NCBI GenBank assembly: GCA_036172245.1
Contig: JAYWIR010000049.1
Span: forward strand, 1-64,000
Length of the DNA stretch: 64,000 nucleotides
Direction: 5' to 3'
From: Raillietiella orientalis
Lineage: Eukaryota
The notes below the pieces were generated by a model. It did not search any database and had not been told where the DNA came from. It worked only from the letters and a program-made list of their open reading frames with translations. This document shows positions 2,717 through 64,000 of this stretch, in pieces (positions within the stretch are counted from its first letter, which is position 1; each line of letters begins with the position of its first letter). The translations under genes and the position numbers were made by a program.

Positions 2717-5700
2717 TTATTATGCGGTTGCAGCGAAACGTTTATTATAATATCAACTGGGAACTGTGTTCCCAGGCAAGGGGAACAGAAAATGGGGAGT
2801 AGATTTCCCGGAACGCAGTCCGGGCACACTGAGAGTTCGGAACGGGAAAGGGGGGCACCATTAATAAATAGATCAAGTGGGAGGGCGAGGACAGGGGTAT
2901 ACAGTCTATCTGTTCCTATTCTCAGTACTGGCGGTGAAGGCCGCCGATCTCCGTCCTCACTTCTGCCCAAGATGTGGCCACCCGGCAGCCATTTGTAGGC
3001 TGCAGGCTGCGGTGTCGGGGACCGATGTTGGGAATGCTCGCATCTGCAATACGTGGCGCGCCCTGACAATGGCGCGGACGCAGCAGATGATTGCAACGAC
3101 CGCTCCAAGAGAAAGTCCGCCACGCGTGTAGAAGCGGCGCATCCAATCTAGTGAGGTGTGTCCAGGGTGCAGGAGCGCTGAAGACAGCCGCTGCCACAGC
3201 TCCTGAAGGGCACCGCACTTAAACAGCAAATGCGGTAGCGATTCCACCTCTCTGCATTTGGCACAGTTCGGGGACGCAACTCTCCCGTAAATAGGTGCGC
3301 CCGCTGGTTTCAGTACAAACCCCAATGCACCAGAAGAAAAGCGTCCTGCTTCCTCCGAAGGGGGAAGAGAGTCGCGTATGAACACGCAGAAGGCACCACA
3401 AGTTCATCAATGGGCACCCCGAGGAGCTCACTCCACCGGAGAAGCCCCTTTGCAAGAATGCGAGGTGTGGCAGCGTCTGCCACTTCGCAAGTCCGCCAGC
3501 CGCCCAGCAGTCGGGTTTCGCCTGCGGTTTCGCAAGTGATCTCCCACCTCGCCGGCAGGTCACTGTCATCTCGCACCATCAGTGTACACGGTGCTTCAGC
3601 GAGTGGCGTAGCGGCTAGGCGTGTCCACTGGTCCTGGTCTTCTAGCACCTCCCCCACTGGACAGTATTGGGAAAGTTTTCACGCAACGGAGTTCCAAACG
3701 GGACACATCCTGTTGCCCTGCCCAGGACGATAAGCTTCCTGCCTCCAGGCGTTGAAGTTCGTCGGCTGGCAGGAGATCCACTCATTGTTTCCTAGAAGCG
3801 TGGCGAGCTGCTACAAAGGAAAGCCGTATCCTCTCTGGGCGCGCTCCGTGCGCAGATGCAACGAACGTAGTCCGTCACCACCCGTGCAGCGCCGCAGCAG
3901 CAGCCGCGCTGGAGCACACCAGGGAGTAGTCCAGAGCTGCGCACAAAGTGCCAGCATGCGGAACTGCACTAGCAGTCCGATCCGCTCTAGCGTCAGGATG
4001 CCCAATCCTGCATCCCGCCGAGGAGCCGCGAAGTACTTTGGGCGTATCCTGGACCTCGCCGATCCCCACAGGGCGTTACGCAACAGGCGTTGCGCTAGGC
4101 GCTTAGCCGAGTAGGGAGAGGGACGAACAAGAAAGAGGGGACGGAGGAGGGGGGCAACGAAAATGTTCCACACGAAGGCCCGTTCCGACAGGAGAAACCT
4201 GCCGCCTTGGAACGGGCCCACAGCTGTCTCGGGTTTGTGAAGGCAGTCCGACCACGCTTCTGCTGGACAGAAGGCGCTCAAGGGAACGCCGAGGTACTTC
4301 AAACACCTGCCCGTGGGGATCCCCAGGCGGATCCATTCGGACTGCCCCTCCAACGTAGAGCCAACCGCTACAACGGTTGATTTCGTCCTGTTAACGCTCA
4401 GGCTCGCTACCCGACGAATGAGCTCGAAGAAGTCCTCGAGCCTGGACGCCGGGGTGGGCATGGGCAGCAGCAGGAGAAGGTCGTCAGCATAGGTGGCCAC
4501 GACCGGCGTACCTGCACAGCAGCTCGGCAGGTTGGCTAGCGTCAGCCTGTAAGCCTCCAGCACCAATTCAAAATAGATGCTGAAGAGCAGTGGACTTAAG
4601 CTGTCACCCTGCCTAATTCCTCGTCGTACCGGCACGCCGTACACGCGACAGCCACTGAAAACAATGGGTGTAATCGCGTGGCGCCACCAGGAGCGCAAGT
4701 AGGCCAACAGGGATGCCGAAATACCCAGACGTTCCAAAAGCTCAAGAAGAAGCTTTTGGTTCACGCAATCGAAAGCTTTGTGCAGATCGGCTGCAGCCGC
4801 TAAGGCTCCCGGTGTCTCCCTTTGCGTCCTGCGCCTCCGTCGGTGAGAGATCGAACGCGTTGCTTCCGCACGAGGATCCACCGCCACACGATGCTGCAAT
4901 TGCAGCCATGGGCGGATAAACCAGAGATTCGCGTTTATGGACCGTCCAGGAAAAGCGTACGTCTGCTCCAGTCTTACCAAGGATTCCGCGATCCTACCCA
5001 TCCGCGCCACCGAAAGTTTCGAGAACAACTTGACGTCCGAATTCACTAATGTGATCGAACGCCAGTTGCTCAGTTGGCGCAAATCTCCGCCTTTCGGCAG
5101 TAGACGCACCTTCGCTGAGCAAAACGAGGCGTGAAATCGCCCGATTCTCGCATCAGCGACGAGAGTTGGAGCACCAAGGGGATGAGATCCGCCGCAAAAC
5201 ACTGAAAGAATTCCGCAAGAAGCCCATCTTTGCCTGGCGCTTTTCGTCTCTTGAGCCCCGAGATGGCCGAGGAAATTTCCTCTGCCGTGAAGGGCTCATC
5301 AACACACGCGCGTTCCTCCTCGTCTACAACAGGTGCATCAATTTGCAGAAGCAGCCGGGAGAGGCTGCGTTCCGTCGGTGCCTCTGCATACAGAGAAGAG
5401 TAATAGCGCCTGACTATCCGTCGCACGTCGGCTGGAGCCGAGCATTCCCGGTCCTGGTCGTCGAGCAGAACTGTCGCCCCTGAGTGCCAGACCTGGCGCT
5501 CGGCCTTGGCCTTGTACTCGGATAATCGACCAACGTCCGCGCGCCTGGAAAAGGAGCGGGCCTGCAGAAAATCTTTGCTGTTGGTTACGCCCTTTCCGAA
5601 GCCGCGCGGAAGCTGGTGCAAGGGAAACCGGCAGCAGAACTCGCGGACCGATCTTTTCAGATCGTCCCAGTCCTCGAGCTCACTTATGGCAAAGCCGAGG

Positions 5701-7140
5701 CGGTACTGGCGAAGATACTAAGCCGCCTCCGGGTGGCTTAGCCAGTCTGCCGGCATCCTCCAAATACAGTTTAGAGGCCCCTTGCCTGGCGGCAGCAACT
5801 CGAACTCGAGCCTCTTGTGGCCTGAAAGCACGGACGGCACGGTACCTCTCCGACCCACACGACAGAGCAAGTGTTCATCAAGGTATACGTGGTCCGGCGT
5901 TGCTGCCATAACAGGGTCGCTAGCAAACAAGTTGCACGCGTGCACGGACGCGCCCATCTCTTCCGTTAGCAACTTTTCCCTTTTGTGGGATCTATTCTCG
6001 GAAAGCAGGTGAGCGTTAAAGTCCCCGGCAATGAGATGGGTCACAGTAGGGTGAGATCGAGTGAGCCACTGGCTTTGAAGGGTACCTAAGAACTCAATCC
6101 TTTCGGCCCATCGTCCTGCCCCGCTCGGCGCGTACACGTTGGTTACGACAAGGTCGATCGAGTGGGACCACTTGAATGCAAGCTGTCCCACTCGACATTC
6201 CGTGTCGAAGCGAACGCCGCGCACCGCTCCCGCCAAAGTTCCTCGCATGAGGAAAGCGACGCCGCACGTACGTGCAACGCCGCACCTACAAAGTAGCGTT
6301 CCGCCCGCGCGCCGTTCGATTTCGGCTACCTGCTCTTCGGATATCCTGTGAATCTCCTGCAGGAGCGTCAAGTCGAAGGCGCGCAGAGCGTGAGCCACTA
6401 GTCGCCTCTTCTCCTCGTGTTGGAGTCCGTTGACGTTCCAAGACGTCACGGCAACACGACGAGAAGACGGGATTGCCCACATCACGGCTGGGAAAGCGAG
6501 GCCGTGGTGCTCGCCTCACCCGGCGAGCGGGCAGTAAGGAACACGACGGGCTGGAGGGCGCGGTCGCCGCCGGCCTCAACTGTGCTGCACGTAATCGAGT
6601 GCTCCCCCCCGGGTGCAGAACCTGTGGGTTCCGGGGTGAGCACTCGCCGTTCCGCGGCGAGTGTGTCACGCCTCAGGGCTTCAGCCCTGCGGGCGCTTGC
6701 TCCCGCGCGAGTAACGCGTCGTTCAGCGGCGCTATCGGACTCCTTTGCGGAGTCTGATGCTCGCACGATCGGCGTGCGCTTGCATCCGTCCGATCGCACC
6801 GGAATCGTCTTCTCTGCGGTCATAGAGGCGGACTTGCACGCGTTGACGGCTCTGGTTTTTTCCAAGGCAGAAGAACCCTCCGCGCGTGTTTTCTTGGTCA
6901 CGCGGCTGTTCTTTGCCTTCAAGGAGCTAACGGATGGAAGTTGCGAAGCCTTGTTGGGAGATTTTTCTTTTCTCCTCTTTACAACCTTCCATTCGCCGTC
7001 ATGATTTTCGGACGCTTCCGCGACTTTCCTCTCGGAAACCTCCGGAGTTTTCGCTACCGCCTCTAGGGGCGCTGCTTTCGCCACGCCTTTAAAAGGAGGC
7101 AGCGTTCTCAGCTTCTTGTCAGTCGGGAGATCGCTCCTCT
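2717..7140 (-). mobile_element. Element D1: partial ORF1 (7084-6482), ORF2 (6485-2957, frameshifted) and 3' UTR; 3' half nearly identical to H
   Basis: WNVNGL/LQEIH/AGDFN; DLHKAFD, GIRQGDSLSP, YADD, KYLG; CAKCREVESLPHLLFKC; AATAAA terminus at about 2717-2748; 5' limit uncertain. Confidence 0.92.
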
Positions 7141-10295: not shown

Positions 10296-10296
10296 T

Positions 10297-14752: not shown

Positions 14753-17700
14753 TTGCCATTTGGCACCCGGATATGCCGGGGCATTTATTATTCTAATTTT
14801 TTACGAAAATTAGATAATAAAGTCTTTAAAAAGATGTTTTCCGTGGGAAAACACTGGGTTCTCCCACCTTGCTCGACGTGTCGTTTGCCGGTGCATAGAC
14901 CGCTTAGGTCCATTCCCGAGGCGCATGCGGAGGGAAAACTAGAACGACAACAAACAAAAAGAGCGATTACGGGGAGGGAAACAGTTATATGGGGAGAAGA
15001 GGGGCAGGAAAGGGATCACTGGGCGCCTGGGTCGGTCCTCCGCATCCTGTTGAGGATGCAGTCAAGTTCGGTTTTTATTGTGAAAGGTAGACGCCACCTT
15101 GTCGCCGTCTCTAAAGAGATCGTCGTCCAGTGGATGGCGTCCCTGCATCTTGGGCCTCTTCTTCTGGCGTGCCACCTTTGCACAATGCCGCGCACGCAGC
15201 AGAGGACTGCTAGAGACTCAGCGGGGCGCAGGCCGTCACGCAGAAAGAGGCGACGGTAAATTTCCTTAGGGTCGCCTACTGGAAGATGGAGGATTGGGGC
15301 GATTCAACTTCAGAGTCCATCCAGGGCGACACACTCGAGGATGAGATGCGGGAAGGTTTCTCTTTCTCCGCACTCAACACAGCGGGCATCCACATTCCCC
15401 AGTGTCCAGTGAGACAGGCGTGCTCTCCTTAACAGTCCCCAGGGCAGAAATAGAGCTCCTCCTAGTGTTTTTTAGGGAGGACAGAACGGGGACAAGGAAG
15501 CTGAAGGAATCCGACAGAAACTTCCGGGGCGTGTTGATAATCTCCTGCAGCGGCTGTCGAGCGTCGGTCCTCGTCGTAGGCAGTTGTATTCCGCCTCGCT
15601 CGTTCCGTTGATCTTAGCCCACGCGGAAGCTGACTCCTGAAGCCAGGCAGTGCAGTTCGCGGGGATGCAGGAGATCCAGGTATTCTCCCTGATCAGGGCG
15701 ACCATCTGGCGCAAATCGGGACCACAGTTGGAGAGGCTGCGCTGGTAGGCCACGAGGATCGAGGACAATCCTTTGCAGCCGGTCGCTCTTCTGGCGAGGA
15801 GCCGTGCCGGATCGCACAATGGCGTCATCCATAAGCTAGCCGCAAGGGCTAACTTTCGAATTCTTGTTTGAAGTTGGATGCGCTCCAACGTAAGGAGGCC
15901 CAAGCCACCATCCCTGCGTGGAGCGCACAAGTCTTTCAATCGGACTCGCGACCTTGCTGTGCCCCAAAGGGCAGTCCTCAAGAGGGCTTTGGTCCGTCTC
16001 TGTAAGATGAGAGGGGCGGGGCAAACAAAAAGTAAGGGGCAAACCAGTGGGACCGCGAACGCGTTCCACACCGCGGCCCGCTCCTGCAAGTAAAACTTGC
16101 CGTTCCGGAACGGGCCGATCGCCAACTCTACCTTTTGGAGACGGTCGGACCAGGCTTCTGCAACGCAGAAGTCCCCCAACGGAACGCCAAAGTACTTGAA
16201 GCACCTGCCCGTGGGGATCCCCAAGCGGATCCAGTCCAGCCGTCCGGCCCACGCCGTATTGTTTAAAAGTTGTGGTGATGTTGGAACGATGGAAGATTTC
16301 TCTCTGTTCACCTCGAGGCCCGTCCCGCGGCGCAGCAACTCAAAGAAATCTTCGAGCGCCGACGCCGGGGTGGACCCGGGGAGCAGCAGCAGAAGGTCGT
16401 CCGCGTACGCTGAAACGGCCGGCGTAACGGCACATTCGTGCCGCAGGTGCGCCAGAGTTTCCTTGTACGCTCCCAGTACCAACTCAAAGTCGGTACTGAA
16501 GAGCAAGGGGCTCACGCTGTCTCCTTGCCGGATCCCAGGTCGAACCGGCACGCCGTGCACTGTCTGCCCGCTGAAAGAAACGTTGATGAGCGCGTCGCGC
16601 CAGCTGGAGCGCAGATAGGCCACTAATGATTCCGCGAAGCCCAAGCGTTCCAGAAGCTCTAGAAGAAGATTCTGGTCGACGCAATCGAATGCTTTCCGCA
16701 AGTCGATTGCGACCGCAAGGGCTCCTTACCCCACCCGACCATTCGACCCCTTGAAGGCTCACGCACCGGAATTCCGGCTGCGCACCAAGCTCCTTACTTG
16801 TTGGAGCTCTAGCCAGGTGGAACCGTGGAACAGGTTGGTCTGCATGCTTCGTCCGGAAACAGCATATGTCTGTTCCGGGCTGATGAAGATGTTGGCAACC
16901 CGTCCCAGACGCTCTGCCCAAACCTTTGCTAGAAACTTGGCGTCCTTATTCACTATTGCGATGGGACCCCAGTTGTTCATGCTCCTCAGATCTCCTCCCT
17001 TAGGGAGCAGCCGCACCCTTGCCGAACGAAACGAGGCGGGAACGTCACCTGTTTCGCGTAGCAGCAAGGTGAGTTGCTGTACCAGGTGGGTAAGCTCAGC
17101 CGCGAAAGTTTTATAAAACTCCGCGGGCAGGCCGTCCTCTCCTGGAGCCTTTCGCCTCTTGAGCTTTCCGATGGCCGAGAGGATCTCGTCCATCGTGGAA
17201 GGCTCGACGATGGTCTTTCTCTGCTCCTCCCCGATCGCTGGAGCGCCTTTGGAAGCAGGAGTCGTAAGGCGTTCCTCTCCGGAGGTGCCCTGGCATACAG
17301 GGAGGAGTAGTAAGTCCGCAGCAGGCCGCGGATTTGGGCAGGTGCCGAGTGCTCCTGGCCCTGATCGTCCCGTAAGCTGGCCGATCCGGAATGCCAGGCT
17401 TGCCTCTCGGCTCCCGCTTTGTATTCCGCCAGCCTGCGGATGTCGGGGGTCCTGGCGTAACTACGGGCCTGCAGGTAGGCTTGTTCGTTGCGGACCCCGG
17501 TCCAAAAACCCGTAGGTAGGCGGTGCAGAGGGAACGGTTCGCAGAACTCCTCCATCGTCCGCTTGAAGCGGTCTCAATCCTGCAGTGTCCGCAGCCTGAA
17601 GCTCCGTATGAACGTGCGGAGATATTCCTCCGCGTCCGGGAGCTTCAGCCAGTCCCCTGGGAGACGTCACGCTGACGAGGGTGGGGCCCTGTCGCGCGGA

Positions 17701-22044: not shown

Positions 22045-25039
22045 TTGCCACCCGGATATGCCGGGGCATTTATTATTCTAATTTTCTACAAAAATTAGAT
22101 AATAAAGTCTTTCAAAAGTTAATTGTGGGAAACACTTGGTTTTCCCGGCTTGGTTGACGTGTCTGTTGCCGGTGCATAGACCGGTTAGGTCCATTCCCGA
22201 GGCGCATGGGAAGGGAAAACTAAAACAAAAACAAACAAAAAGAGAGATAACGGGGGGGGAAACAGTTGTATGGGGAGAGGCGGGGCAGGGAAGGGATTAC
22301 TGAGCGCCTGGGTCGGTCCTCCGCATCCTGTTGAGGATGCAGTCAAGTTCACTTTTTATCGTGAAAGGTAGAGGCCACCTTGTCGCCGTCTCTAAAGAGA
22401 TCGTCGTCCAGTGGATGGCGTCCCTGCATCTTGGGCCTCTTCTTCTGGCGTGCCACCTTTGCACAATGCCGCGCACGCAGCAAAGGACTGCTAGAGACGC
22501 AGCGGGGCGCAGGCCGTCACGCAGAAAGAGGCGACGGTAAATTTCCATAGGGTCGCCTACTGGAAGGTGGAGGATTGGGGCGATTCGACTCCAGAGTCCA
22601 TCCAGGGCGACACACTCGAGGGTGAGATGCGGGAAGGTTTCTCTTTCTCCGCACTCGACACAGCAGGCATCCACATTTCCCAGTGTCCAGTGAGACAGGC
22701 GTGCTCTGCTTAACAGTCCCCAGTGCAGAAATAGCAACGCCGTCTCCTGCCGCTTCAACGGAAGTGTGGCGCAATCCCAACACGCTGGGGGCCACTTCAC
22801 CTCCTCCGCAGGTATTGCGAGCAGCTCTCCCCAGCGAGCAAGTCCGTGAGGCGGGACGCTCGGAGTGGCAGCGTTAGTGAGCTCCCGAGTCGTCCACGCC
22901 TTTAAAGGTTTTTTCCTGCCTCGGATGAGGCAGGACACTTCCCACGATGCCAGCTCGTTGCTGCTCCTACTGTTTTTCAGGGAGGACAGAACGGGGGCAA
23001 GGGGGCTGGAAGAAGCCCACAGAAACTTCCGGGGCGTGTTGATAATATCCTGCAGCGGCTGTCGAGCGTACGGTCCTCGTCGTAGGCAGTTGTATTCCGC
23101 CTCGCTCGTGCCGTTGATCTTAGCCCACCCGGAAGCTGACTCCTGAAGTCAGGCAGTGCAGTTCGCGGGGATGCAGGAGATCCAGGTATTCTCCCTCATC
23201 AGGGCGACCATCTGGCGCAAATCGGGGCCACAGTTGGAGAGGCTGCGCTGGTAGGCCACGAGGTTCGAGGACAATCCTTCGCAGCCGGTCGCTCTTCTGG
23301 CGACGAGCCGTGCCGGATCGCACAATGGCGTCATCCATAAGCTAGCCGCAAGGGCTAACTTTCGAATTGTTGTTTAAAGTTGGATGCGCTCCAACGTAAG
23401 GAGACCCAAGCCACCATCCCTGCGTGGAGCGCACAAGTCTTTCAATCGGACTCGCGACCTCGCTGTGCCCCAAAGGGCAGTCCTCAAGAGGGCTTTGGTC
23501 CGTCTCTGTATGATGGGAATGGCGGGGCAAACAAAAAGTAAGGGGCGAAGGAGGGGGGCCGCGAACGCGTTCCACACCGCGGCCCGCTCCTGCAAGTAAA
23601 ACTTGCTGTTCCGGAACGGGCCGATCGCCAACTCCACCTTTTGGAGACGGTCGGACCAGGCTTCTGCAACGCAGAAGTCCCCCAACGGAACGCCAAGGTA
23701 CTTGAAGCACCTGCCCGTGGGGATCCCCAAGCGGATCCAGTCCGGCCGTCCGGCCCACGCCGCATGGTTGAATAGTTGTGGTGATGTTGTAACGATGGAA
23801 GAACAGAGAGAACTCTGTTCACCTCGAGGCCCGTCCCGCGGCGCAGCAACTCAAAGAAATCTTCGAGCGCCGACGCCGGGGTGGACCCGGGGAGCAGGAG
23901 CAGAAGGTCGTCGGCGTAGGCCGACACGGCAGACGTGCCGGGACACGAGCTTGGCAGGGTTGCCAGCGTCTCCCTGTATGCCCTCAGCACCAGCTCGAAG
24001 TAGATGCTGAAGAGCAAGGGGCTCAGACTGTCACCCTGCCTTATGCCACGCCGAACCGGCACGCCGTACACGTGCCGGCCGCTAAAAGAGATGTTTATTA
24101 GAGCGAAGCGCCAGCAGGAGCTCAGGTAAGCCCGGAAGACGGCCGGGAATCCCAAGTGTTCCTGGAGCTCCAGAAGCAGTTCCTGGTCGACGCAATCGAA
24201 CGCTTTACGCAGATCGACTGCGACCGCAAGGGCACCGGGCGCGGCTCTTCCATGAAGGGCGTCCCCTCCCTGGTCAGAGGAGAATCCAGGATTCTCTTGA
24301 CCTCCCTGTTCTTCGCTTTGTTGCAACTGCCACCATGTACTGGCGAGGAACAGGTTGGCCTCCATGCTTCGTCCGGGAACAGCGTATGTCTGCTCCAGAC
24401 TCACCACGGATTCCGCCACCCGTCCCAGTCGCTCAGCCCAAAGCTTGGCAAGCAACTTCGCATCCGCATTCACTACTGTGATGGGACGCCAGTAGCCTAC
24501 ATTGCGATTGTCTCCTCCTTTCGGCAGGAGACCTACTACAGCTGACCGGAACGATTTGGGGACGTCCCCTTGTTCTCGGATCAGCATGCATAGCCGATGC
24601 ACCAGGGGGGCCAGCTCCGCCACGAAGCCTTGGTAGAACTCCGCGGGCAGACCGTCTTCCCCTGGTGCTTTTCTCTTTCGGAGCCTTCCGATGGCGGAGA
24701 CGATCTCCGCCATCGAGAAAGGCTCGCGAGTTCATGTGCCTGCTCCTCCTGCAGCGCGGGGGCGCCTTGCGGCAGCAAGCGCTGCTCCACGGCGCGCTCG
24801 GTTGTTCTACGCGCGTACAAAGAGGAGTAATAGTCCCGCAGGATGCGGTTTATTCTCGCCGGAGCTGAGCATTCTTGGCCTTGGGCGTCCAGCAAGCTGG
24901 GCGACCCGGATTGCCAGGTCTGTCGCTCAGCCCCAGCTTTATACTCCGCCAGGCGTCGAACGTCGGGAGTCCTAGAGTAAAGACGGGCGTGGTGGTATGC
25001 CCGGTCGTTCCTCAGCCCTCCGCCGAATCCCTTGGCGAG
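22045..25039 (-). mobile_element. Element E2, 3' segment: RT, C-terminal CCHC and 3' UTR
   Basis: KAPGEDGL, DLRKAFD, QGDSLSP, YADD, CVECGERETFPHLTLEC; terminus aataaatgccccggcatatccgggtggcaa. Confidence 0.9.
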
Positions 25040-30550: not shown

Positions 30551-30679
30551 CTGTCGGGGAGTGCCACGCCGGGCTGCGTCCCGGTGTCCCGACAGGTCCT
30601 GTGTCTACGGCCGTGGTGGGGCCTTGTACCACGCATGTAAAGTTTATCAATAAACGCCCCGGGCGTACCCGGGTGGCAA
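30551..30679 (+). other. Structured 3' UTR of G1: CTGCGT-loop hairpin, second hairpin, AATAAA and terminal cccggg-cgta-cccggg stem-loop
   Basis: Inverted repeats are visible, and homologues with compensatory changes occur at other element ends. Confidence 0.8.
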
Positions 30680-39240: not shown

Positions 39241-42200
39241 TTTTCACCCTGATTTCGCCGGCGCGTTTATTGTAAAATAAACTTTTACAAAGACGTGCGG
39301 TTGCTGGAACATTGCTCCAGCTACGCACGAAGAAACACAGAGCCTGCCGGGTCATCGGTTCGCAGACCGGTATGGTCCACCACGGCAGCAGGGGGAAGGG
39401 GGAAAAACAAAAAACAAAACAAAAAAAAAAAGAAAAGTTGAGAGGGTAAGGGAAGGGATCACAGTTGCTGGTGGTGCCGTTGCATCCTTTGCAGGATGCC
39501 GGCAAGCTCCTTCTGTATTCCTGGATCCAGATGGGGCCATCGGGACTCCCTCCTCAGCAACTGGGAGGCTGGCTGGATGGCACCCTGGTCGCGTTGTCCT
39601 CCCGTAGCCTTGCTCCAAGCGGTGACGATCCCGCGTAGGCAGCACAAAGCTGCTAACGAGGCCGCTGGCCGAAGGGCGTCGGCAACGAAGAGGGCTTCCA
39701 GTGCGTCCCTGGGGTTGCCGCAGGGGAAACCGATGGTTGCGGCAAAGCGAAACCAAAGGGGCCGAAGGGCAACACAATTCACTAGCAGTTGGGGGAGGGA
39801 CTCCCGTTCCCCACACCTGACGCAATTGGGGTCCACCGCTCCCCAGGTCCAGTGTTGTCGGCGGGCGTTGCAGGGGAGTCCCCAGTGCTGCAACAGGAGA
39901 GCCGACTCCTGCCATTTTAAGGGGAGGGCGGAAGTGTTCATGAGCACCGGGAGCCACTTCACATGTTCAATGGAAACATCCAGCAGCGCGCCCCAGCGCA
40001 GAAGTCCATTGCGAGGCGTACTCAAGTACTCAGCGTGTGTTAACTGGCCCGTCTTCCACTCTCCTATCTTCTTCTCCTTTCCAGAGATTGTTACTGTAAC
40101 CACCCACTTCGCCGCAACATCGCTGTCCAGGTCTGTCATCAGGGAGTTCAGCGCAGCAGCGAGGGGGGTTCTTCCTGCCCACGCTCGCTTCCTTGGTTCC
40201 TCCAGGATCTCGCGGAGTGTGCAATTTCTGTAACCCCCAAACAGGAACCGTCGTTCCTGTTGGGAGCGTTGCATGCCGAACTGTCCCCACGTCCAAACGG
40301 TTTCCTGCAACCATGCACTACCGTTCAACGGGCGACAGGTAAGCAATCCTGGGTTTTTCCGATACAGCGCAGCCACCCTCCGTAGCTGGAGTCCGTATCA
40401 GTTGACGCAGAGACGGAGTGCAAGAAATGTCGTCAGTCCCGTGTTGCCGGTGGCTTGTTGGAAGAGGAGACGTGCAGGGACGCACCAACAGATGCACCAC
40501 AACTCTGGAAGGAGTGCCGACAAGCGGAACTGGAGCTGAAGCTCCAGCCGCTCCCGCGTCAGGCGGCCCAGACCACCATCCGGACGAGGAGCGCACAAGT
40601 CCTATAAGCGGACTCGGGCCCTCCCGTTGCCTCAAAGGGCGATACGGAGGAGGTCCTTTGTCCGCTTTTTAATTCTCTCTGTGGGGGGGCAAACAAAAAG
40701 CAGTGAGCGGAGGGGAGAAGCCGCGAAGGTGTTCCAAAATGCGGCCCGTTCAGGCAGGAAAAACCTGCCGATTCGGAACGGGCCGATCGCCGTGTCTACT
40801 TTTCGGAGGCAGCCGGACCACGCTTCCGCAGGGGAGTAGTCCCCCAACGGCACACCAAGGTTCTTGAAGTACCTCACCGTGGGGATCCCCAAACGGACCC
40901 AGTCCTGCTGCCCTGTCCACGCCGCACCAACTGGCATCACGGACGACTCCGCCCTGTTCACCGTAAGTCCGGTTCCCCGATGCAGCAGGTCGAAGAACTC
41001 CTCGACCGCCGCACTCGGGATGGACATAGGGAGCAGCAGCAGAAGGTCGTCCGCGTATGCTGAAACGGCCGGCGTACCGGCACAGTCGTGCGGCAGGTGC
41101 GCCAGAGTTCCCCTGTACGCTCTCAGTACCAACTCAAAGTAGGTACTCAAGAGGAAGGGGCTCAGGCTGTCTCCCTGCTGGATCCCACGCCGCACCGGCA
41201 CGCCGTGCACGCTCTGCCCGCTGAAAGTAACATTGTTGAGCGCGTCGCGCCAGCAAGAGCGCAGATAGGCCACTAATAAGGCCGGGAAGCCCAAGCGTTC
41301 AAGAAGCTCCAGAAGGAGATTCTGGTCGACGCAATCGTATGCTTATCGCAAGTCGATTGCGACCGCAAGGGCTCCCTCCCCCAACCGACCATCCAACCCC
41401 TTGCCGGCGCACGCACCGGAATTCCGGCTGCGCACCAAGCTCCTTTCATGTTGGAGCTCTAGCCAGGTGGAAGCGTGGAACAGGTTCGCCTCCATGCTTC
41501 GCCGGGAACAGCATATGTCTGTTCCAGGCTGATGAAGATGTTGGCAACCCGTCCCAGACGCTCTGCCCAAACCTTAGCCACCAACTTGGCGTCCGCATTC
41601 ACTATTGTGATGGGACGCCAGTTGTTCATGCTCCTCAGATCTCCCTTAGGGAGGAGCCGCACCTTTGCAGAACGAAACGAGGCGGGAACGTCACCTGTTT
41701 CGCGTATCAGCAAGGTGAGTTGCTGTACCAGGGGAGTAAGCTCAGCCGCGAAAGTTCGATAAACCTCCGCGGGCAGGCCGTCCTCTCCTGGAGCCTTTCG
41801 CTTCTTGAGCTTTCCGATGGCCGATAGGATCTCGTCCATCGTGAAAGGCTCGTCGAGGGTGTTTCTCTGCTCCTCTCCGATCGCTGGAGCGCCTTCCGGA
41901 AGCAGGAGTCGTGATACGTTCCTCTCCGGAGGTGCCCCGGCATACAGAGAGGAGTAGTAACTCCGCAGCAGGCCGCGGATTTAGGCAGGTGCCGAGTGCT
42001 CCTAACTCTGATCGTCCAGTAAGCTGGCCGATCCGGACTGCCAGGCTTGCCTCTCGGCTCCCGCTTTGTATTCCGCCAGCCTGCGGATGTCGGGGGTCCT
42101 GGCGTAACGACGGGCCTGCAGGTAGGCTCGTTCGTTACGGACCCCGGTCCCAAAACCCGTGGGTAGGCGGTGCAGAGGGAACTGGTCGCAGAACTCCTAG

Positions 42201-43418: not shown

Positions 43419-46400
43419 TTTACACCCGGGTACGCCCGGGGCGTTTATTTTTGAAAAAAAAACAACTCTACATCCGCGGTACAAGGCCCCGCTCACGGCC
43501 ATATGCAGTGGACCTGCCGGGACGCCGGGACGCAGCCCAGCGTAGCGTTCCTCAGCAGCGAAGGGGGATGGGGATAAAACAAAAAGAAAAATAAAAAACA
43601 TAAACAGACAAAAAGAAGTTGGAGGGCAGGGAAGGGATCACTGAACGCTGTGAGGAGGGCCCATCCGTTGAAGGAAGCCCTTGAGGTCCGTCCGTATATT
43701 CCCCAGTTGGGGCCATGCGGCAGCTCTCCGCAAGAAGCGTTGGGCGTATGAGACGACATCCCTCGCGTGTGGACCCACTCCTTCGTTATTGGCGTCGCTC
43801 CATGCCGCCACGATGCCACGGACACAGCACAAGGCTGCGATGGCTGCGGCTGGCTGCAGTGCGTCCTTCACCGAGAGGGGCCGAAGAACGTCTCTGGGGG
43901 TGCTGCCCGTAGGGAGCCCTAGGGTCGCCCCGAACCGTTCCCAGAGGGGTCGGATGGCAGCACAATCCACAATAAGGTGGGGAAGCGACTTCCGCTCCCC
44001 GCCCATGGCACACGCAGGATCCACAGCTCCCCTCGTCCAGTGGAAGCGGCGCGCGTTGCAGGGTAGACCCCAGTGCAACAAAAGCAACGCCGACTCTTGC
44101 CACTTAAGGGGCAGGATCCTGGATTCCTTTAATACCGGGGGCCACTTCAGCACATCCGTAGGGATGGCGAGCAGCTCGCCCCATCTCATTAGTCCACGCG
44201 GCTGGACGCTCGGGGTCGAGGCGTAGGCCAGTTCTCCTGTTGTCCAGCCGCTGATCAACTTCTCCCTGCCTGCTATTTGGCAGGTGACTTGCCACCTCGG
44301 CTTCTGGCAATCCTGAAGCGCCATCAGGAGGTAGGGCATCGCCTTAGCAAGGGGGGTCGTCAACGCCCACCTGCGACTCCGAGGAAATTCCAGTATTTCC
44401 CGCAGGGTGCGGTTGGCGTATGGGCCGATTCGCAGGCAGTTCATGTAGTTTTCGCTCCTCCGGTTCAGCTTAGCCCATGTGCCAGCAGACTCCTCTAACC
44501 AGGCGGAGGAGTTGGCGGGGCCACAAACCATCCAGCCGTTCGTCTTCGCCAAGGTTGCTATGCGTCCGAGCATAAGGCCGCATCTTCGGATCTTCCGGCC
44601 AGGGCACAGAAGAAACGACGCGAGTCCTTCGCATCGGGACACACGCCTGGCGAGGTGGCGGGCCGGAACGCACCAAGGGGTGCTCCACATCTTCGCTGCG
44701 ATGGCGAGGGTTCGCCACCGCAGCTGGATTTCCACGCGCTCCAGCGTCAGGAGGCCAAGGCCGCCGTCCCGACGCGGAGCGCACAAGTCCTGCAGAGGGA
44801 CTCGGGGCCTCCCCTTCCCCCAAAGGACGATGCGGAGGAGGTCCTTCGTCCTCTTCTTGGATTCCACGGTGGGGGGGCAAACAAAAAGCAAGGGGCAAAG
44901 GATGGGGGCCGCGAAGGCGTTCCAAACCGCGGCCCGTTCCGGCAAGTGAAACTTGCCTTCCAGGAACGGGCCGATCGCCGTCTCGACTTTTTGAAGACAG
45001 CTGGACCACGCTTCCGCAGGGGAGTAGTCACCCAACGGCACACCAAGGTCCTTGAGGCACCTCGCCGTGGGGATCCCCAGACGGACCCAGTCCTGCTGCC
45101 CTGCCCACGCCGCACCTACTGGCACCACCGACGACTTCGCCCTGTTGACCTGCAGTCCGGTCCCACGGCTGAGCAGCTCGAAGAAGTCTCCGATCGCCTT
45201 CGCCGGGGAGGACATAGGTAACAGGAGCAGAAGGTCGTCGGCATAGGCTGCTACGGCGGGCGTAAGGGGACACGAGCTAGGCAAGGAGGCCAAAGTCACC
45301 CTGTAGGCTCTCAGCACCAACTCAAAGTAGGTGCTGAAGAGCAGGGGACTCAGGCTATCTCCCTGCCTGATGCCCCGCCGCACCGGCACGCCATGCACCT
45401 TCTGACCGCTGAAAGAGACGGAAATTATCGCATGGCGCCAGCAGGAGCGCAGGTAGTTGATCAAGGAGGGTGGGAAGCCCATGCGACCCAGGAGCTCCAA
45501 CAAAAGCCCCTGGTCTAGACAGTCGAACGCCTTATGGAGATCGACTGCGAGCGCTAAGGCCCCCTTCCCCGCCCGGGAGTCCATTTCCTGCCCTGCTGGC
45601 GGCCCCAAAGTGGGATTGCCGATTTTTCCTTTCCCTTCCTTTTGACACCTCTGCGCGTGCATCCACGTGCTCGCGAAGAAGAGGTTGGCATCCATACTTC
45701 GCCCGGGAACAGCATATGTCTGCTCCGGGCTAATAATGGATTCTGCCACCTGCCCCTGACGCGAAGCCCATAGACCGGCAACCAACTTGGCGTCCGTATT
45801 CACAATCGTGATCGGACGCCAGTTGTTCAAATTCCTAAGGTCTCCCCCTTTCGGAAGGAGCCTATCTCTGGCTGACCGAAACGAGGCGGGAACATCGCCA
45901 TCGTCTCGGATCAGCCTTGTCAGCTGAAGCAGCAGGGGTGCCAGCTCTTCCGCGAATAGAACTCCGCGGGCAAGCCGTCTTCCCCTGGGGCTTTCCGCCT
46001 CTTGAGCCTTTTGATACCGGCGAGAATTTCGCCGGTGGTAAAAGGCTCATCGAGGCTTAACGACTCCTCCTCCCCTATTGCCGGGGCACCATCCGGAAGC
46101 AAGAGCCGAGAGGCATCTTGATCCGGGGGCGCCCTGGCGTAAAGGGAGGAATAACAACTCCGCACGAGATGCCGTACCGACGCCGGGGACGAACATTCCC
46201 GGCCCTGGTCGTCCAGCAAGCTGGCCGACCCGGATTGCCAGGCTTGGCGTTCGGCCCCGGCGCGGTATTCGGCCAAACGACGGACATTAGGGGTTCGCTC
46301 GTACCTACGGGCCTGTAAATACGCCCGATGGTTGCGAGGACCCTCGCCGAATCCGGAGGGCAGGCGGTCCAGGGAGAACTGCTCGCAGAATTCCCGGACT

Positions 46401-46767: not shown

Positions 46768-49700
46768 TTATCACCCGGTCACGCCGGGGCGTTTATTAAT
46801 AATAATAAACTGGTCAGGGACAATGTCCCCAACCGAGAGAACGACAGAGAACATAGAAAAATTACCGGCACGCAGGCCTGGTAAACAAACCGCTCGCAGC
46901 GTGGGGGGAATGAGGGGAAACAAACAAAAATCAAAAACTGGAGGGAAGGGTAACGGGTTTTTGGTTAGGCTCCGTACTCACGGGGATTTATACGATGAAC
47001 ACCTAAAATGTTCCGGAGCCTATGGGGACGCGGGTGTAAAAAGAAAATACAAATTTAGTTTATGGAGGGTAGGGCAATGATCACCGTGTTGGCCGCTGCT
47101 CAGCGTGTGTAAACCGGCGGTGTATTGCGGCGAGATTCCTCTTTGTCTCCTCTGTCAAATGAGGCCATCTAGCGGATGCTCCCATGTAGAAGGATGCTTT
47201 GCTGATTACCTCTTGGTGCTGTCCGTTGATTACCAGCGCCTGGCGGACGGAAACTATCGCGCGTATGCTACCGATGGTTGCAATCCTTGCGCTCAGGGAG
47301 AGCCCGCTCGGAGTGAAGAATCGTCGCAGCAAGACTCTTGCGGTGTCCACGGGATGCATTAGTGCTGTTGCCAGCCTACTCCACAGTCCTTGTAGGACAC
47401 CGCAGTCCAGAAGTAGGTGCGGAATCGACTCCGTCGATCCGCACCGAACGCAGTTCGCAGACGCAAGTCCCCCGGAGACACGATGCCAACGCTCGGTGCA
47501 CTGAAAACCCCAGTGAACGAAAAGCAGCACGGCTTGTTTCCAAGCAAGGGGGAGCAGCGAACTGTCAATACACTGTGGAGGGACCACAAGTTCTTCGGGG
47601 GCGACAGCAAGTTCTTCTGCCCACCGGAGGAGTCCCTTTGCAGTAACACGAGGAGTGGCGGCGTCCGCCAACTTAGTCGTCTTCCAGGCGCCAAGCAGTT
47701 TGGTTTTTCCTGCTATCGTGCAGGAAACCTCCCATCTCGCCGGTTGGTAACTGTCGTTTCTTGCCCTGAGGGCAGACAGCGCCGCGGCAAGAGGCGTGGC
47801 AGCCAGGGTAGAAAACTTCACCTCGTCCTGCAGTACTTCTTCGAAGGATCGTGGAAAAAATTGGCGCAGGGGGCGAAGATCTTCAGGGCGTATTCCTTGG
47901 AACGCCGCCCAGGATTCAACAGACTCCTGCCGCCAAGCTTCAAAGTTCATTGGGCGGCAGGATATCCACGAGTGAGCTTCCAGAAGTACGGTCAACTGCT
48001 GCAATAGAAACCCGAAACCCCGCTTCCTGTATTGAGTGCCCGGCAAAAGCGAGAGAAATCCTCCGCTGCCGGCGCATCTCCGTAGGAGAATGCGGGCTGG
48101 CACACACAGGGAAGATGTCCATAGCTGGGCACACAGTGCCAGCAGTCGGAACTGCATCTGCGGTCCGATTCGTTCCATTGTCAATATACCCATACCAGCA
48201 TCCCGACGCGGAGCTAACACATCTTTAAGGCGCATCCTGGATCTCGCCGGACCCCAGAGAGCGTTCCTGTGCAGGAGTTTAGCCCGCTGTTTTGCCGCAT
48301 AGGGGACGTCCATAACAAAAAACAGGGGACGGAGGAGGAGGGCCACAAAGGTGTTGCAAATAGTCTTCCGTTCCTGCAAGGTAAAATTGCCGTTAAAGAA
48401 CGGGCTGATGGCCAACTCTGCTTTCTGAAGACAGCCCGCCCACGCTTCGGCTGCGCCGAAAGCGTCCAAAAAAACGACAAGGTACTTAAAGTACCCGCCT
48501 GTGGGGATCCCCAGGCGGATCCGGTCGGACTGCCCCTCCCTCGACGCACCCACAAGAGCGAACACGCTCTTCTCTCTGTTCACGCTCACGCCCGCTCCCC
48601 GACGAATCAGGTCGAAGAAATTCTCGACACAGAACGCCGGGGTGGACATGGGGAGCAGAAGAAGCAGGTCATCAGCGTTTGCGGCCACGGCAGGCGTTAC
48701 CGGGCAGGAGCTTGGCAAGTGAGACAGTGTCAGCCTGTATGCTCTAAGCACCAGCTCAAAGAATATGCTGAAGAGCAACGGGGTTAAGTTGTCGCCCTGT
48801 CGGATGCCCCTACGCACGGGGATACCATACACTCGGCAGCCGCTGAAAGTGATGCAGGTTAGCGCGTGGCGCAAGCACGCGCGCAAATACAGCAGGAGTT
48901 GCGCCGGGAACCCAAGGCGTTCCATAAGCTCCAAAATAAGCTTCTGGTTTAAGGAGTCGAACGCCTTGTGGAGATCGACCGCGACCGCTAAGGCACCTGG
49001 CGTTCCCTCGTACCGTCGGCGCCTGTTCTTCTTGCCTGCGGCAGTGACTTTCTCAGCAGCCTGGCTTTGCTGCGCCACAACTTCCTGCAGCTGCTTTCAT
49101 GAACGCGCGAAAAGGATGTTCGCCTCCATGGATCGTCCCGGAACCGCGTAGGTTTGTTCCGGACTCACCACAGATTCCGCGAAACATCCTAGCCGCGCGA
49201 CCCACAGCTTGGAAAAGAACTTGACGTTTGAGTTAATCAAGGTAATCGGACGCCAGTTGTTTAGCTGACGCAAGTCTCCGCCTTTCGGCAGGAGACGCAC
49301 CTTCGCTGAGCGGAAGAAATCCGGGACATTCCCGGATTCACTCATCAGCGTCGCGAGTCTCAGCATCAAGGGAATAAGCTCCACGTCAAAGCGCTGATAA
49401 AACTCTCCAGGGAGTCCATCCTCGCCTGGCGCCTTTCGTCTCTTCAGCCCAGCGATGGCGGACGAAAATTCATCCGCCGTGAAGGGCTCGTTGAGACGTA
49501 CGCCATCCTCCTCGCCGACAACACGAGCATCCTGAGACAGGAGTATCTCAGAGAGAATATCCTCCGTCGGGGATTATGCGTACAGCGAGGAGTAGTAGCG
49601 TCTCACAATGCGGCGTACTTCGGCTGGGGCCGAACATTCCTGGCCCTTGCCGTCCAACAGGCATGCTGCTCCGGACTGCTAGACCTGGCCCTTGGCCCTC

Positions 49701-56477: not shown

Positions 56478-59400
56478 TTGCCACCCGGTCACGCCGGGGC
56501 GTTTATTAAAACTTCTCTTTGATTCGTGGTACGAGGCCCCACTACGGCCAACTCAACTGGACCTGCCGGGTCGCCGGTACGCAGACCGGCGCGACTCTCC
56601 TCGGTAGCGGAAGGGGGTGGGGGAAAAAACAAAAAGAAAAATAAAACATAAATACAAAAAGATTTGGGTGGGTTGGGGAGGGATCACTGACCACTGAGAG
56701 GAGGGTCCATCCTTCGCAGGATGCCCTCCAGGTCCGTCCGTATAATCTCCAGGTGGGGCCATCTGGTCACAATCCGCAGGTAGCGGACTGCAAGTACGAC
56801 AGCATCCCTGTCGTGATTCGGTCTTCCGACGTTGCTCCAGCGCGTCACAATCCCGCGTACGCAGCAATGTGCAGCCAGGGTAGCGGCTGGACGCAGGGCA
56901 TCATGCACGAACAGAAGCCGAAAAACGTCTCTGGCCTGGCTGCCCTCCTGGATCCGTAGGGAGGCACGAAGGCGTTCCCACAGGGGTCGGAGGGCAGCAC
57001 AATCAACAAGGAGGTGGGGGAGGGTATCTTGTTCCTCACACCTGATGCAGGTAGGATCTACTCGACCCCTGGTCAAGTGGTGGCGGCGTGCGTTGCAGGG
57101 TAGACCCCAATGCAACAACAGAAGCGCCGACTCCTGCCACTTCAGGGGGAGGATCTTAGAACCAATTAATACCGGGGGCCACTTCAGGTCATCCGGCTGG
57201 ATGCCGAGTAGCTCGCCCCATCTCTGCAGTCCTCTCGGCTGGACACTAGGGGTACTGGCATCCGCCAGTTCACCCGTGGACCAGCCGCTGATCAACTTCT
57301 TGCCTGCGATGCGGCAGGAGACTTGCCACCTAGGCTTGCGGCTGCTGGAGAGCGCCCTCCTCAGGAAGGGCATCGCCGTAGATAGGGGGGTTGTCTCTGC
57401 CCACGTGCTTCTCCCGGGACACTGGAGTATCTTCCGCAGAGTGCAGCTGGAATAGGCGCCGCGTCGCAGGCAGTTCCACAGCTCTTCATTCTTTTCATTA
57501 ATCTTCGCCCACGTGCCAGCTGTCTCCTCCAGCCATGCGGAGGAGTTGGCGGGGCTGCATTCCATCCAGCCGTTTTCCTTTGCCAGGGTTGCTATCCGTC
57601 CCAGGAGGAGTCCGCATCTCTTGATCTTCGAGCCGCGGCACAGAAGATGAGACGCGAGACCCTCCGTTCCGGATACTCGGCTGGCAAGGACTCGGGCCGG
57701 AACGCACCATGGGGTGCTCCATAACTTCTCTGCGATGGCCAGGGTGCGCCATCGCAGCTGGATTTCTACTCTCTCCACCGTCAAGAGGCCCAGACCGCCA
57801 TCCCGACGTGGAGCACACAAGTCCATCAACTGGACTCGGGGCCTCCCTTTTCCACAAAGGGCAATCCTCAGGAGGTCCTTTGTCCTTTTCTTCATGTCTC
57901 TGGGGACGGGACAAACAAAAAGCAGGGGGCGGAGAATGGGAGCCGCAAAGGAGTTCCACACCGCGGCCCGTTCCGGAAGCAGGAACTTGTCTTCCAAGAA
58001 CGGGCCGATCGCCGTTTTTACTTTTTGGAGGCAGCCGGACCACGCATCCGAAGGCGAGTAATCCCCCAACGGCACACCGAGGTACTTCAAGCACCTCGCC
58101 GAGGGGATCCGCAAACGGACCCAGTCCTGCTGTCCAGCCCACGTCGCACCGACTGGCACCACCGACGACTTCGTCTTGTTAACCTGCAGTCCGGTTCCGC
58201 GGTTAAGCAGGTCGAAGAAATCCTCGACTGCCTTTGCCGGGGTGGACATCGGCAACAAGAGCAGAAGATCGTCGGCGTACGCTGCTACGGCGGGCGTGCC
58301 GGGGCACGAGCTCGGCAAGGGGGCCAACGTCACCCTATACGCTCTCAGCACCAAATCAAAGTAGGTGCTAAAGAGCAGGGGACTGAGGCTGTCACCCTGC
58401 CGTATGCCCCGCCGTACCGGCACGCCGTACGCCATTTGACCTCTGAAAGAGATTTTGATCAGCGCGCTGCGCCAGCAAGAGCGCAGGTAGGTCAGTAGGG
58501 AGGGTGGGAAGCCCATGCGTCCCAGGAGCTCCAGCAGCTGATCCAGGTCCACGCAGTCAAACACTTTATGCAGATCAACTGCGATCGCTAAGGCTCCCTT
58601 CCCCACCTGGGAGTCCCGTCCCTGCCCGGCTGACGCCCCCAAAGCGGGGCTGCCAATCATTCCCTCTTGCTTTTCTTCACTACTCTGCACATGAAACCAT
58701 GTGCTCGCAAAGAAGAGGTTGGCCTCCATACTTCGCTCGGGAACAGCGTAATTCTGCTCCGGGCTAATTATGGAATTGGCCACCTGCCCCAGGCGCGAAG
58801 CCCACAGTCCGGCGATCAACTTGGCGTCCGTGTTCACAATTGTGATCGGACGCCAGTTGCTGAGTTTCCTGAGGTCTCCTCCTTTCGGAAGGAGCTTCAC
58901 TCCTGCTGACCGAAACGAGGCGGGTACATCGCCTTCATCTCGGATCAGCCTTGTCAACTCTGCCGCGAAGCATTGAAAAAACTCCGCAGGCAGTCCGTCC
59001 TCCCCTGGTGCTTTCCGCCTCTTGAGCCTTTTGATACCGGCGAGAATTTCGCCGGTGGTAAAAGGCTAGTCGAGGCTTTTCTTCTTCTCCTCCACTATTG
59101 CCGGGGCACCGTTAGGAAGCAAGCGCCGAGAGGCATCTTGGTCCGGGGGCGCCCTGGCGTAAAGGGAGGAATAATAACGCCGCACGAGGTGCCGTATTCT
59201 AGCCGGAGCCGAGTGCTCCCGGCCCTGGTCGTCCAGCAAGCTGGCCGATCCGGATTGCCAGGCTTGACGTTCGGCCCCGGCTCGGTACTCTGCCAGGCGA
59301 CGGACATTGGGGGTCCTCTCGTACCGGCGGGCCTGTAAATAGGCCCTATGGTTCCGAGCCCCCTCCCCAAATCCGGAAGGCAGGCGGTGCAGGGGGAACT

Positions 59401-62627: not shown

Positions 62628-64000
62628 TTTTCACACGGATTACGCCGGGGCGTTTATTGTAAAATAAACTTCTACAAAGAAGTACGGTGGCTGGACCATT
62701 GCTCCAGCCACGCACAAAGAAACAGAGCCGGCCGGGTCACCGGTTCGCGGACCGGTACGGTCCACCACGGCAGCAGGGGGAAGGGGGAAAAACAAAAAAC
62801 AAAACAAAAAAGAAAAGAAAAGTTGGGAGGGTAAGGGAAGGGATCACAGTTGCTGGTGGGGCCGTCGCATCCTTTGCAGAATGCCGGCAAGCTCCTTCTG
62901 TATTCCTGGATCCAGGTGGTGACATCGGGACGCCCTCCTCAGGAACTGGGAGGCTGGCTGGATAGCACCCTGGTCGCGTTGTGCTCTCGTAGCCTTGCTC
63001 CAAGCAGTGACAATCCCGCGTAGGCAGCACAAAGCTGCTAACGAGGCCGCTGGCCGGAGGGCGTTGGCAAAAAGAGGGCTTTCAGTGCGCCCTGGGGTTG
63101 TCGCAGGGGATTCCGATGGCCGCGGCAAAGCGAAACCAAAGGGGCCGAAGTGCAACACAATCCACTAGCAGGTGGGGGAGGGACTACCGTTCCCCACACC
63201 TGACGCAATTAGGGTCCACCGCACCCCAGGTACAGTGGTGTCGGCGGGCGTTGCAGGAAAGTCCCCAGTGCTGCAACAGGAGAGCCGACTCCTGCCATTT
63301 TAAATGGAGGGAGGAAGTGTTCATGAGCACCGGGGGCCACTTCAGATGTTCAATGGGAACATCGAGCGGCGCGCCCCAGCGCAGAAGTCCATTGGGAGGC
63401 GTACTCGGGGTCGCAGCATCTGTTAACTGGCCCGTCTTCCACTCTCCTATCTTCTTCTCCTTTCCGGAGATTGTTATTGTAACCACCCACTTCGCCGCAA
63501 CATCGCTGTTCCGATCTTCCATCAGGGAGGGCAGCGCAGCAGCGAGGGGGGTTCTTCCTGCCCACGCTCTCTTCTTTGGATCCTCCAGGATCTCGCAGAG
63601 CGTGCAACTTCTATAACCCCCAAACAGGAACCTTCGTTCCTGTTGGGAGCGTTGCATGCCGAACTGTCCCCACGTTCGGACGGTTTCCTGCAACCAGGCA
63701 CTACCGTTCAACGGGCGACAGGTGAGCAATCCTGGGTTTTTCCGATACAGCGCAGCCACCCTCCGTAGCTGGAGTCCGCATCGGTTGACGCGGCGACGGA
63801 GTGCAAGAAACGACGTCAGTCCCGTCTTGCCGGTGGTTTGCTGGAGAAGGAGACGTGCAGGGACGCACCAACAGGTGCACCACAACTCTAGAACGAGTGC
63901 CGACAAGCATAACTGGAGCTGAAGCTCCAGCCGCTATAGCGACAGGAGGCCCAGACTACCATCCCGACGAGGAGCTCACAAGTCCTTTAAGCGGACTCGG
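62628..64000 (-). mobile_element. Element P (family A type 3' end), running off the window
   Basis: Near-identical to 39241-40610; AATAAA-hairpin terminus. Confidence 0.92.

Follow-up and report, generated by a model that had tools for sequence, protein, structure and literature searches.

Introduction

In LINEs (long interspersed nuclear elements) of the stringent type, a stem-loop near the 3' end is recognised by ORF2p, the protein of open reading frame 2 (ORF2); zebrafish ZfL2 needs its cognate stem-loop (PMC4176376), and stringent stem-loops are often bulged (PMC5135761). This principle is known, but it is unusual for relatives of L1. Among plant and algal L1s, families without a 3' repeat number 9 of 233 and 5 of 15 in Table 1 of Ohshima 2012 (PMC3472496). 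Here we describe LINEs from the first 64 kb of contig C49 (JAYWIR010000049.1, positions 1 to 64,000) of the 210-Mb Raillietiella orientalis genome, a stretch that we call the window. These elements end without poly(A), in AATAAA followed by a short hairpin and four further nucleotides, an arrangement that we refer to as the cassette. The cassette is real, genome-wide and element-encoded, and it is a stringent LINE 3' end in the L1/Tx1 group. All statements about published systems refer to the covered parts of the cited papers.

Like the window elements, monocot LINE1-1_ZM ("monocot 1a") and Chlamydomonas L1-1_CR belong to the L1 clade and have a 3' end that is conserved across diverged families and forms a hairpin with compensatory changes (PMC3472496, PMC3747384). 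They differ in being plant or algal and in belonging to groups with partner SINEs (short interspersed nuclear elements), and L1-1_CR ends in poly(A) (PMC3472496, PMC3747384). The covered part of the main text of Ohshima 2012 describes no fixed 4-nt register past a hairpin downstream of AAUAAA (PMC3472496). In eel UnaL2 and zebrafish ZfL2-1 and ZfL2-2, the 3' stem-loop recognised by ORF2p carries a conserved loop on a variable stem, which matches a second, upstream CUGCGU hairpin of our elements, and L2-clade LINEs that are about 60% identical in reverse transcriptase (RT) share a stem-loop, similar to the families here (PMC4176376). However, UnaL2 is of another clade and ends in TGTAA repeats linked to slippage (PMC3747384), whereas the cassette has no repeat, and the terminal hairpin, with its invariant stem and variable loop, is the opposite of the L2 pattern (PMC4176376).

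Elements of the Tx1 clade (Tx1L, Keno, Kibi, Koshi, Tx1-Mar) resemble ours in being animal elements with an apurinic-type endonuclease (APE) and RT, in having family-specific targets that include other transposons, and in forming tandem copies separated by a target-site duplication (TSD) (PMC4494074). The SINEU families mobilised by Tx1 have poly(A) tails, unlike the elements here (PMC4494074). Human L1 shares the domain order, an AATAAA near the end and a stem-loop that helps to define the initiation site in vitro (PMC10830416, PMC5381506), but its ORF2p depends on 15 or more single-stranded As and about five others for pairing (PMC10830416; review PMC12503042), the A:T pairing taking place at TTTTT/AA (PMC10830416). 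In vertebrate L1s, AATAAA is directly followed by poly(A) (PMC5381506), whereas in our elements a hairpin separates AATAAA from an end with just two As, and the majority of targets are unable to pair with A. R1Bm and R2Bm have precise 3' junctions, recognise their own RNA through the 3' untranslated region (UTR) and initiate with or without target homology, R2Bm being able to do without 3' homology (PMC7265360, PMC10499050). Unlike the elements here, they have a single target in ribosomal DNA (rDNA), R2 has a different endonuclease, and no AATAAA-hairpin cassette is described for them in these sources (PMC7265360, PMC10499050). No report of such a cassette in an animal L1/Tx1 element was found in our literature search, which stopped short of Repbase, subscription papers and supplements (including Ohshima's lists, which may bear on novelty).

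Results

The families behind the eleven LINE 3' ends of the window (Table 1) all end in AATAAA-Y-G-Y, a 5-bp GC stem with a variable loop of 4-6 nt, then T-R-NN-AA, and the element stops exactly there. A free-stem pattern (AATAAAYG...TR-NNAA) that leaves the stem sequence unconstrained matches 11 times, with 0.01 matches expected from shuffles, and the strict motif is present at 7 of the 11 ends and in none of 100 shuffles. Since tblastn places exactly one of 11 ORF2 C-termini upstream of each cassette, the count of eleven is complete. Only two runs of at least nine A or T are found in the window, both upstream of a cassette. The preliminary description of this DNA, which reported eleven ends without poly(A), each with AATAAA and a stem-loop, is borne out by these counts, and ten of its eleven end positions hold; in place of 14753, the cassette probably ends at 14760 (CCAA), where the exact end is ambiguous. 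It rightly called the stems of the two family A copies imperfect, as both are decayed (their flank is in common), but the stems at 39241 and 62628 are imperfect as well, and the tail that it gave as 3-4 nt is 4 nt (NNAA) when defined by TSDs. Outside the window, 21 of 22 family A loci end in CCGGGTA and one in CCGGATA, with ATAA next in 21 of 22 (a 23rd locus duplicates a window copy); the true family A end at these genomic loci is AATAAACGTCCCGG-CGCAA-CCGGGTA-ATAA. The TCGA-target family, decayed at 39241 and 62628, has 103 exact cassettes elsewhere.

Genome-wide, the strict cassette occurs 1501 times in exact form, and a reversed control gave no match. A run of seven As lies within 6 nt of only 2 of these 1501, and at least five As follow the NN in 5 of 1920 cassettes when outer-pair variants are included. 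Neither the variable-length 3' poly(A) of relaxed (mammalian-type) L1s nor the terminal short tandem repeat of L2-type elements is found; no end carries a tandem repeat, and the TSD directly adjoins NNAA. The NNAA tail is present in 28 of 30 loci picked without regard to the tail, and in 214 of 224 ends of a set that includes loci selected for NNAA.

Where the element ends was determined from TSDs in 224 distinct ends, collected from fetched loci and the window. At a score of at least 12, TSDs were accepted for 56 of them, compared with 1 of 224 at a control position. The TSD starts directly after NNAA, or reaches one or two shared As leftward, in 54 of the 56, and one base later in the other two; it is 12-20 bp long (mode 14), and the copies defined in this way measure 50-2034 nt. 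As the two target bases preceding the TSD are never AA (0/56), the As derive from the element or its RNA, and NNAA as part of the target is ruled out. The first TSD base is A in 25 cases, C in 14, T in 13 and G in 4. With 31 of 56 TSDs starting with a base other than A, pairing of the tail with the primer through A:T pairs is not required, and the pairing of a T-rich primer with an A tail (TTTT/AA) that marks relaxed L1s is not seen. A third A is present at 3 of 71 TSD-defined ends, and one locus (L337, picked from five long-tail cases) has five non-target As ahead of a 15-bp TSD. These few ends are the sole sign of a template with a longer A tail; they suggest that the RNA is polyadenylated although its DNA copies are not.

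The NN dinucleotide is inherited, with 14 changes on a 46-copy tree compared with 20.5 after shuffling (0/200 shuffles). Two other origins were considered and rejected: that the target serves as template for NN or is complementary to it, given that NN follows descent and that no fixed-offset complement was seen by eye, and that the tail is a tRNA-like NCCA end, given that CC is present in only 3 of 224. A search for flank transduction among 149 ends without TSD (offsets 6-100) gave 14 matches against 4.5 in the control, and by eye these were LINE-LINE homology, tandem copies or low complexity.

Targets differ between families: ACA(G/A)C, TCGA, CCAG, C-rich, AGCA, ACGA and ACTT. Target information peaks at +1 to +5 downstream of the nick, reaching up to 2 bits. 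Upstream of the nick there is bias too, with 11 of 13 TCGA-family sites having G at -4, and this implicates the endonuclease. With leave-one-out target matrices, 90 of 118 de-duplicated insertions were assigned to their own family (about 15 by chance), two families completely so (17/17 and 7/7), and 28 to the matrix of another family, mostly one with a similar target. As the target reports on the protein and the tail on the RNA, no more than a minority of insertions in the eight groups can be due to cross-mobilisation. Target similarity is not linked to descent in the three clusters that are most homogeneous (Mantel p 0.15, 0.56 and 0.57) and follows descent in two clusters that mix subfamilies (p 0.009 and 0.043), whereas NN does follow descent in the largest homogeneous cluster (p < 0.001). 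Together, the Mantel results are weak evidence against flank inheritance.

At three fetched loci (L102, L015, L002), and in the window at 39217-39241 and 14749-14760, an element has inserted in tandem where an older copy has its 3' junction, with one TSD or a short spacer between the two; the downstream half of the target is thus enough for re-insertion. The target of the cluster 2 family (L121-L147) resembles one repeated host sequence, TTCCA/CCAGTGCCGCACCCGAAG.

The 5-bp core of the terminal hairpin, CCCGG/CCGGG, is identical in all sampled families of the window lineage, while the loop varies; most families were found through the core motif, and deviating ones could have been missed. Between window families the ORF2 pieces are only 45-75% identical, so that the 3' tail is far more conserved than the rest of the element, as is typical of the stringent type. 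Beyond a bulged U, an outer pair is C-G in 1501 cassettes, U-G in 266, U-A in about 104 and a C-A mismatch in about 49 (for U-A and C-A, the 68 and 32 counted in the first 100 were scaled up to 153). Two families have U-A as their normal form, namely family A and a relative of window family E. A further hairpin, with the loop CUGCG(U/A), lies about 65-100 nt ahead of AATAAA in 180 of 259 ends, and its closing pair occurs as C-G, U-A, A-U and G-C, i.e. in all four Watson-Crick types. Compensatory stem changes, another stringent trait, are found in this upstream hairpin, and in the terminal hairpin through the outer pair only. Judged by its sequence variation, which follows the textbook stringent pattern, the CUGCGU hairpin is a better candidate for stringent-type recognition than the terminal one. 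AAUAAA is predicted to pair with upstream U-rich sequence above shuffles in 16 of 26 clusters (mean pairing 0.43 versus 0.27), with strong pairing in family C. A penultimate hairpin of family-specific sequence precedes AATAAA at 32100-32130 (-) and in other UTRs; in family D it has a cUUCGg tetraloop.

Among 20 RT-bearing stretches fetched from the top Pfam matches, 16 represent a second lineage, which is 25-38% identical to the window families in ORF2 and forms a clade with them (SH-aLRT 98 in a quick tree without a named Tx1 reference). Its end reads AATAAA-4 nt-CCCCA-CCC-loop-GGG-ACY-TGGGG-AAA(A), a bulged stem of other sequence with 148 exact copies. One family has swapped a C-G pair for G-C (71 C-G and 10 G-C among 81 listed, no mismatch). 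At the 4 of 28 loci that yielded a TSD, the tail measures 3-4 nt, and copies with intact ORFs likewise lack poly(A) tails. As the second lineage retains this layout on another stem, the layout predates the sequence, and the sequence is replaceable. A third lineage is weakly indicated by L287, whose bulged stem is compensated but which is represented by one copy only, located at the end of a contig; its relative L288 has no hairpin.

Several further observations concern these relatives. The second-lineage family with the G-C swap inserts in U1 small nuclear RNA (snRNA) genes (L285:2281-2443, Rfam RF00003), and the flank of L280 is U1-like by eye. L290:1-490 holds another RT type (27% identity to the rest), antisense in 28S rDNA, that ends in AAAATAAAA without a hairpin. 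On contigs C71, C114, C30, C53, C33 and C26, RT matches are spaced at about 5.5 kb on one strand, which suggests head-to-tail arrays of near-intact copies; the units of second-lineage arrays are parted by a TSD-like spacer of about 15 bp. The window itself contains a 5' piece at 7266-10157 (+), with ORF1 and the start of APE, that is lineage-2-like by eye, and no lineage-2 tail was seen within the window.

The window consists of nested LINEs with APE and RT domains, which are old and broken. In a comparison with the PDB, human L1 ORF2p is the solved structure that their ORF2 matches best (335 positions, E 1e-33), and R2 scores E 4e-17. The closest database protein is metagenomic P0001 with 66% identity, the remaining 33 matches having 21-31%, and a metagenome scan with one alignment returned one locus from 246 candidates, 33% identical, without AATAAA downstream and unrelated-looking. 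In an RT tree that holds no named Tx1 reference, the window families group with L1-like matches, away from an outgroup of the restriction-like endonuclease type. ORF2 has an N-terminal APE endonuclease and RT, and its C-terminal zf-RVT matches (E 4e-5 and 1e-3) both fall under the curated cut-offs. Variable 5' truncation and TSDs are further L1/Tx1 traits, and the family-specific targets, with U1 as a target in the sister lineage, are Tx1-like. On these sequence criteria, the window elements are L1/Tx1-group LINEs, probably of the stringent type. The host is an animal, its actin being of the metazoan cytoplasmic type; AATAAA lies shortly past the actin stop codon. No Rfam family reaches its gathering score in the window.

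Table 1. Cassettes, coding pieces and predicted hairpins in the window.
Feature	Position	Strand	Remarks
Cassette, family A, decayed	2717..2746	-	Family form elsewhere AATAAACGTCCCGG..CCGGGTA ATAA
Cassette, family C	14760..14789	-	Then 10-nt spacer and next element's 5' start GCGGACGC at 14749
Cassette, family C	22045..22074	-	Strict and free-stem pattern
Cassette, family B	30649..30679	+	Element start near 25039, TSD diverged
Cassette, family D	32063..32092	-	Exact 12-bp TSD 32051-32062 / 34097-34108, starting directly after TGAA
Cassette, family A, decayed	38000..38029	+	Flank same as 2717 copy
Cassette, TCGA-target family, decayed	39241..39271	-	Tandem with next element's 5' start at 39217
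Cassette, family B	43419..43449	-	Strict motif
Cassette, family E	46768..46797	-	Strict motif
Cassette, family B	56478..56507	-	TSD of ~15 bp, 2 mismatches, 5' copy 62357-62371
Cassette, TCGA-target family, decayed	62628..62658	-	In RT-coding DNA of another LINE
Upstream hairpin, conserved CTGCGT loop, covarying stem	30569..30584	+	Equivalents 56574-56589 (-), 37922-37939 (+), 2807-2824 (-)
Predicted AU-rich hairpin, ~17 bp, 3' arm containing AATAAA	22069..22106	-	Retained among family C relatives, missing from several other families
ORF2 piece (RT and C-terminus), family B	56684..59065	-	RVT_1 E 3e-22
ORF2 piece with APE endonuclease and RT start	26829..28745	+	Exo_endo_phos E 2e-12
Further ORF2 piece	43638..46046	-	
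Further ORF2 piece	35939..37789	+	
Further ORF2 piece	47081..49096	-	
Further ORF2 piece	3811..5295	-	
ORF1-like frame, CCHC zinc knuckle (weak)	33995..35239	-	zf-CCHC_6 E 0.0085, below cut-off

Seven element 5' starts of different families, at 25039 (+) and at 62356, 54965, 52653, 39217, 35317 and 14749 (-), all have G(C/T)GGACG(T/C)(G/A) ahead of a T-rich stretch, which may be a shared promoter or start signal. The short copies seen look like heterogeneous 5' truncations, no systematic search for partner SINEs having been made. In the cluster 0 family (e.g. L020, L045, L049, L240), the lengths of 5'-truncated copies bunch at 195-222 nt (7/23) and 763-848 nt (5/23), and two very short insertions (L241, L105) consist of little beyond the cassette and have TSD-like flanks.

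Discussion

The fixed end, the inherited NN, the family-specific targets, the lack of a need for A:T pairing and the partial covariation are best accommodated, with a probability that we put at about one half, by stringent-type recognition with initiation of reverse transcription in a fixed register on a polyadenylated RNA. The endonuclease cuts at sites specific to each family, with a stagger of about 14 bp. In this model, the host would cleave and polyadenylate the RNA about 22-24 nt past AAUAAA, and ORF2p would hold its own structured 3' UTR, for which the conserved-loop CUGCGU hairpin would be the likely identity tag and the terminal hairpin may serve as a stop or ruler. With the nicked DNA end then positioned 4 nt past the terminal stem on its 3' side, only two As of the tail, occasionally three or five, would be copied. 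The proteins would act mostly in cis.

Several observations weigh against this model. Being invariant, the core gives no covariation and says nothing about pairing. U-A double changes at its outermost pair amount to 12 of 100 listed, against a background of about 5%, and single changes to about 15 per 100 listed of 440, or some 5% of the consensus count. The age of the copies could account for the double changes, and core covariation is not established. The U-A outer pair needs two events on the tree, a single origin being possible, and the outer pair is not energetically favoured (-8.5 versus -8.7 kcal/mol for C-G, -6.6 versus -8.4 for U-A). The 35-nt cassette folds no better than shuffled sequences (z -0.45 to -0.94); among stretches of the last 140 nt, 4 of 7 have a folding z below -2.5. 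The TSD finder was anchored at +5, and unanchored scans gave the same offsets in clean cases. What is apparently one second-lineage subfamily has A-rich runs of 8-15 As at six loci, which may be tail or target. Finally, in human ORF2p the stem has to be separated from the active site by 15 or more single-stranded As (PMC10830416), so that another geometry would be required here.

A pairing mechanism like that of R1Bm and R2 is an unlikely but serious competitor. The RNA would be cleaved a few bases into a target-like parental flank, the flank would pair with the nicked primer, and copying would begin at NNAA without including a tail, the hairpin only positioning the cleavage. R1Bm does require downstream target sequence (PMC7265360), and 3' homology raises the precision of R2Bm (PMC10499050). 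The precise, tail-free junctions and the concentration of target information just downstream of the nick would be expected, and at one junction (L161) the +1 position carries the family base where the 5' TSD copy differs. However, the bias at -4 is what an endonuclease would produce, the three homogeneous clusters lack the descent signal that is present in the two mixed ones, no flank transductions were recognised among the 149 ends, and the extra As between NN and the TSD imply that As, not flank, lie beside NNAA on the RNA. We consider it similarly improbable that the RNA physically ends at NNAA, its poly(A) never added or trimmed back until a protein-bound hairpin blocks the nuclease, with RT starting at this end without pairing. 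Histone mRNA provides a model for such a hairpin-protected, trimmed 3' end. A constant 4-nt overhang with a rare additional A would result, and pairing of AAUAAA in the predicted AU hairpin could weaken normal polyadenylation, but this pairing is absent in 10 of the 26 clusters, and the second-lineage subfamily with A-rich runs, if these are tails, does not fit. Moreover, without homology R2Bm skips bases or adds untemplated ones (PMC10499050), whereas the junctions here are clean.

The preliminary description had further proposed that a signal shared across families allows cross-mobilisation. That the signal is common to the families is correct, given one core across their diverged ORF2s, and this identity, together with the 28 of 118 insertions assigned to the target matrix of another family, could be taken to mean that the cassette is one interchangeable tag through which the families mobilise each other. 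We regard this as very improbable, and cross-mobilisation is not supported: 90 of 118 insertions match their own family and most misassignments are between similar targets, the loop is variable between families, as would matter if specificity resides in the loop as in ZfL2 (PMC4176376), and the distant second lineage has a different stem. Hardly credible at all are ordinary poly(A)-primed L1s with decayed or mis-assembled tails. Although the window copies are indeed old and broken, TSDs directly adjoin NNAA even at perfect-TSD copies, positions that already refute tail decay; second-lineage copies with intact ORFs have no tails either, and long A runs are present elsewhere in the assembly.

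Stringent-type recognition in a fixed register retains much of what the preliminary description had suggested. The fixed 3' end point is confirmed by the TSD register 4 nt past the stem, and long poly(A) on copies elsewhere, which it had named as speaking against its reading, is not the rule, with five or more As at only 5 of 1920 cassettes. Structure-directed reverse transcription agrees with the missing poly(A), the fixed end and some covariation; binding of the terminal hairpin by ORF2p, in contrast, does not follow from an invariant core and weak z values. Covariation, its proposed check, is seen at the outer pair and in the upstream CUGCGU hairpin, but not in the five core pairs. New here are the TSD-defined register, the finding that A:T pairing is dispensable, a cis signal and a second lineage.

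More tentatively, and at odds that we would place clearly below even, a clade of animal L1/Tx1 elements that is deep, with 25-38% ORF2 identity between its members, may have swapped poly(A) priming for a structural ruler. A bulged hairpin directly past AAUAAA would set initiation 4 nt downstream on a polyadenylated RNA without primer-template pairing, and the lineages would have retained a common layout although their stem sequences were completely replaced. If this is true, a ruler independent of poly(A) would free the endonuclease of each family to evolve non-T-rich targets, such as the genes of other LINEs or U1 snRNA.

It is an open question how L1-clade proteins select the point at which they start, and whether recognition of poly(A) came after stringent recognition (PMC3472496, PMC4176376). 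Clean, tail-free junctions at many different targets contrast with the long poly(A) and A:T pairing of human ORF2p. With a 30-nt cassette that has natural variants, and with sister-lineage relatives that have intact ORFs, the question of spacing becomes directly testable in vitro. A tail-free, precise and sequence-preferring APE element would also be of interest for gene-insertion work.

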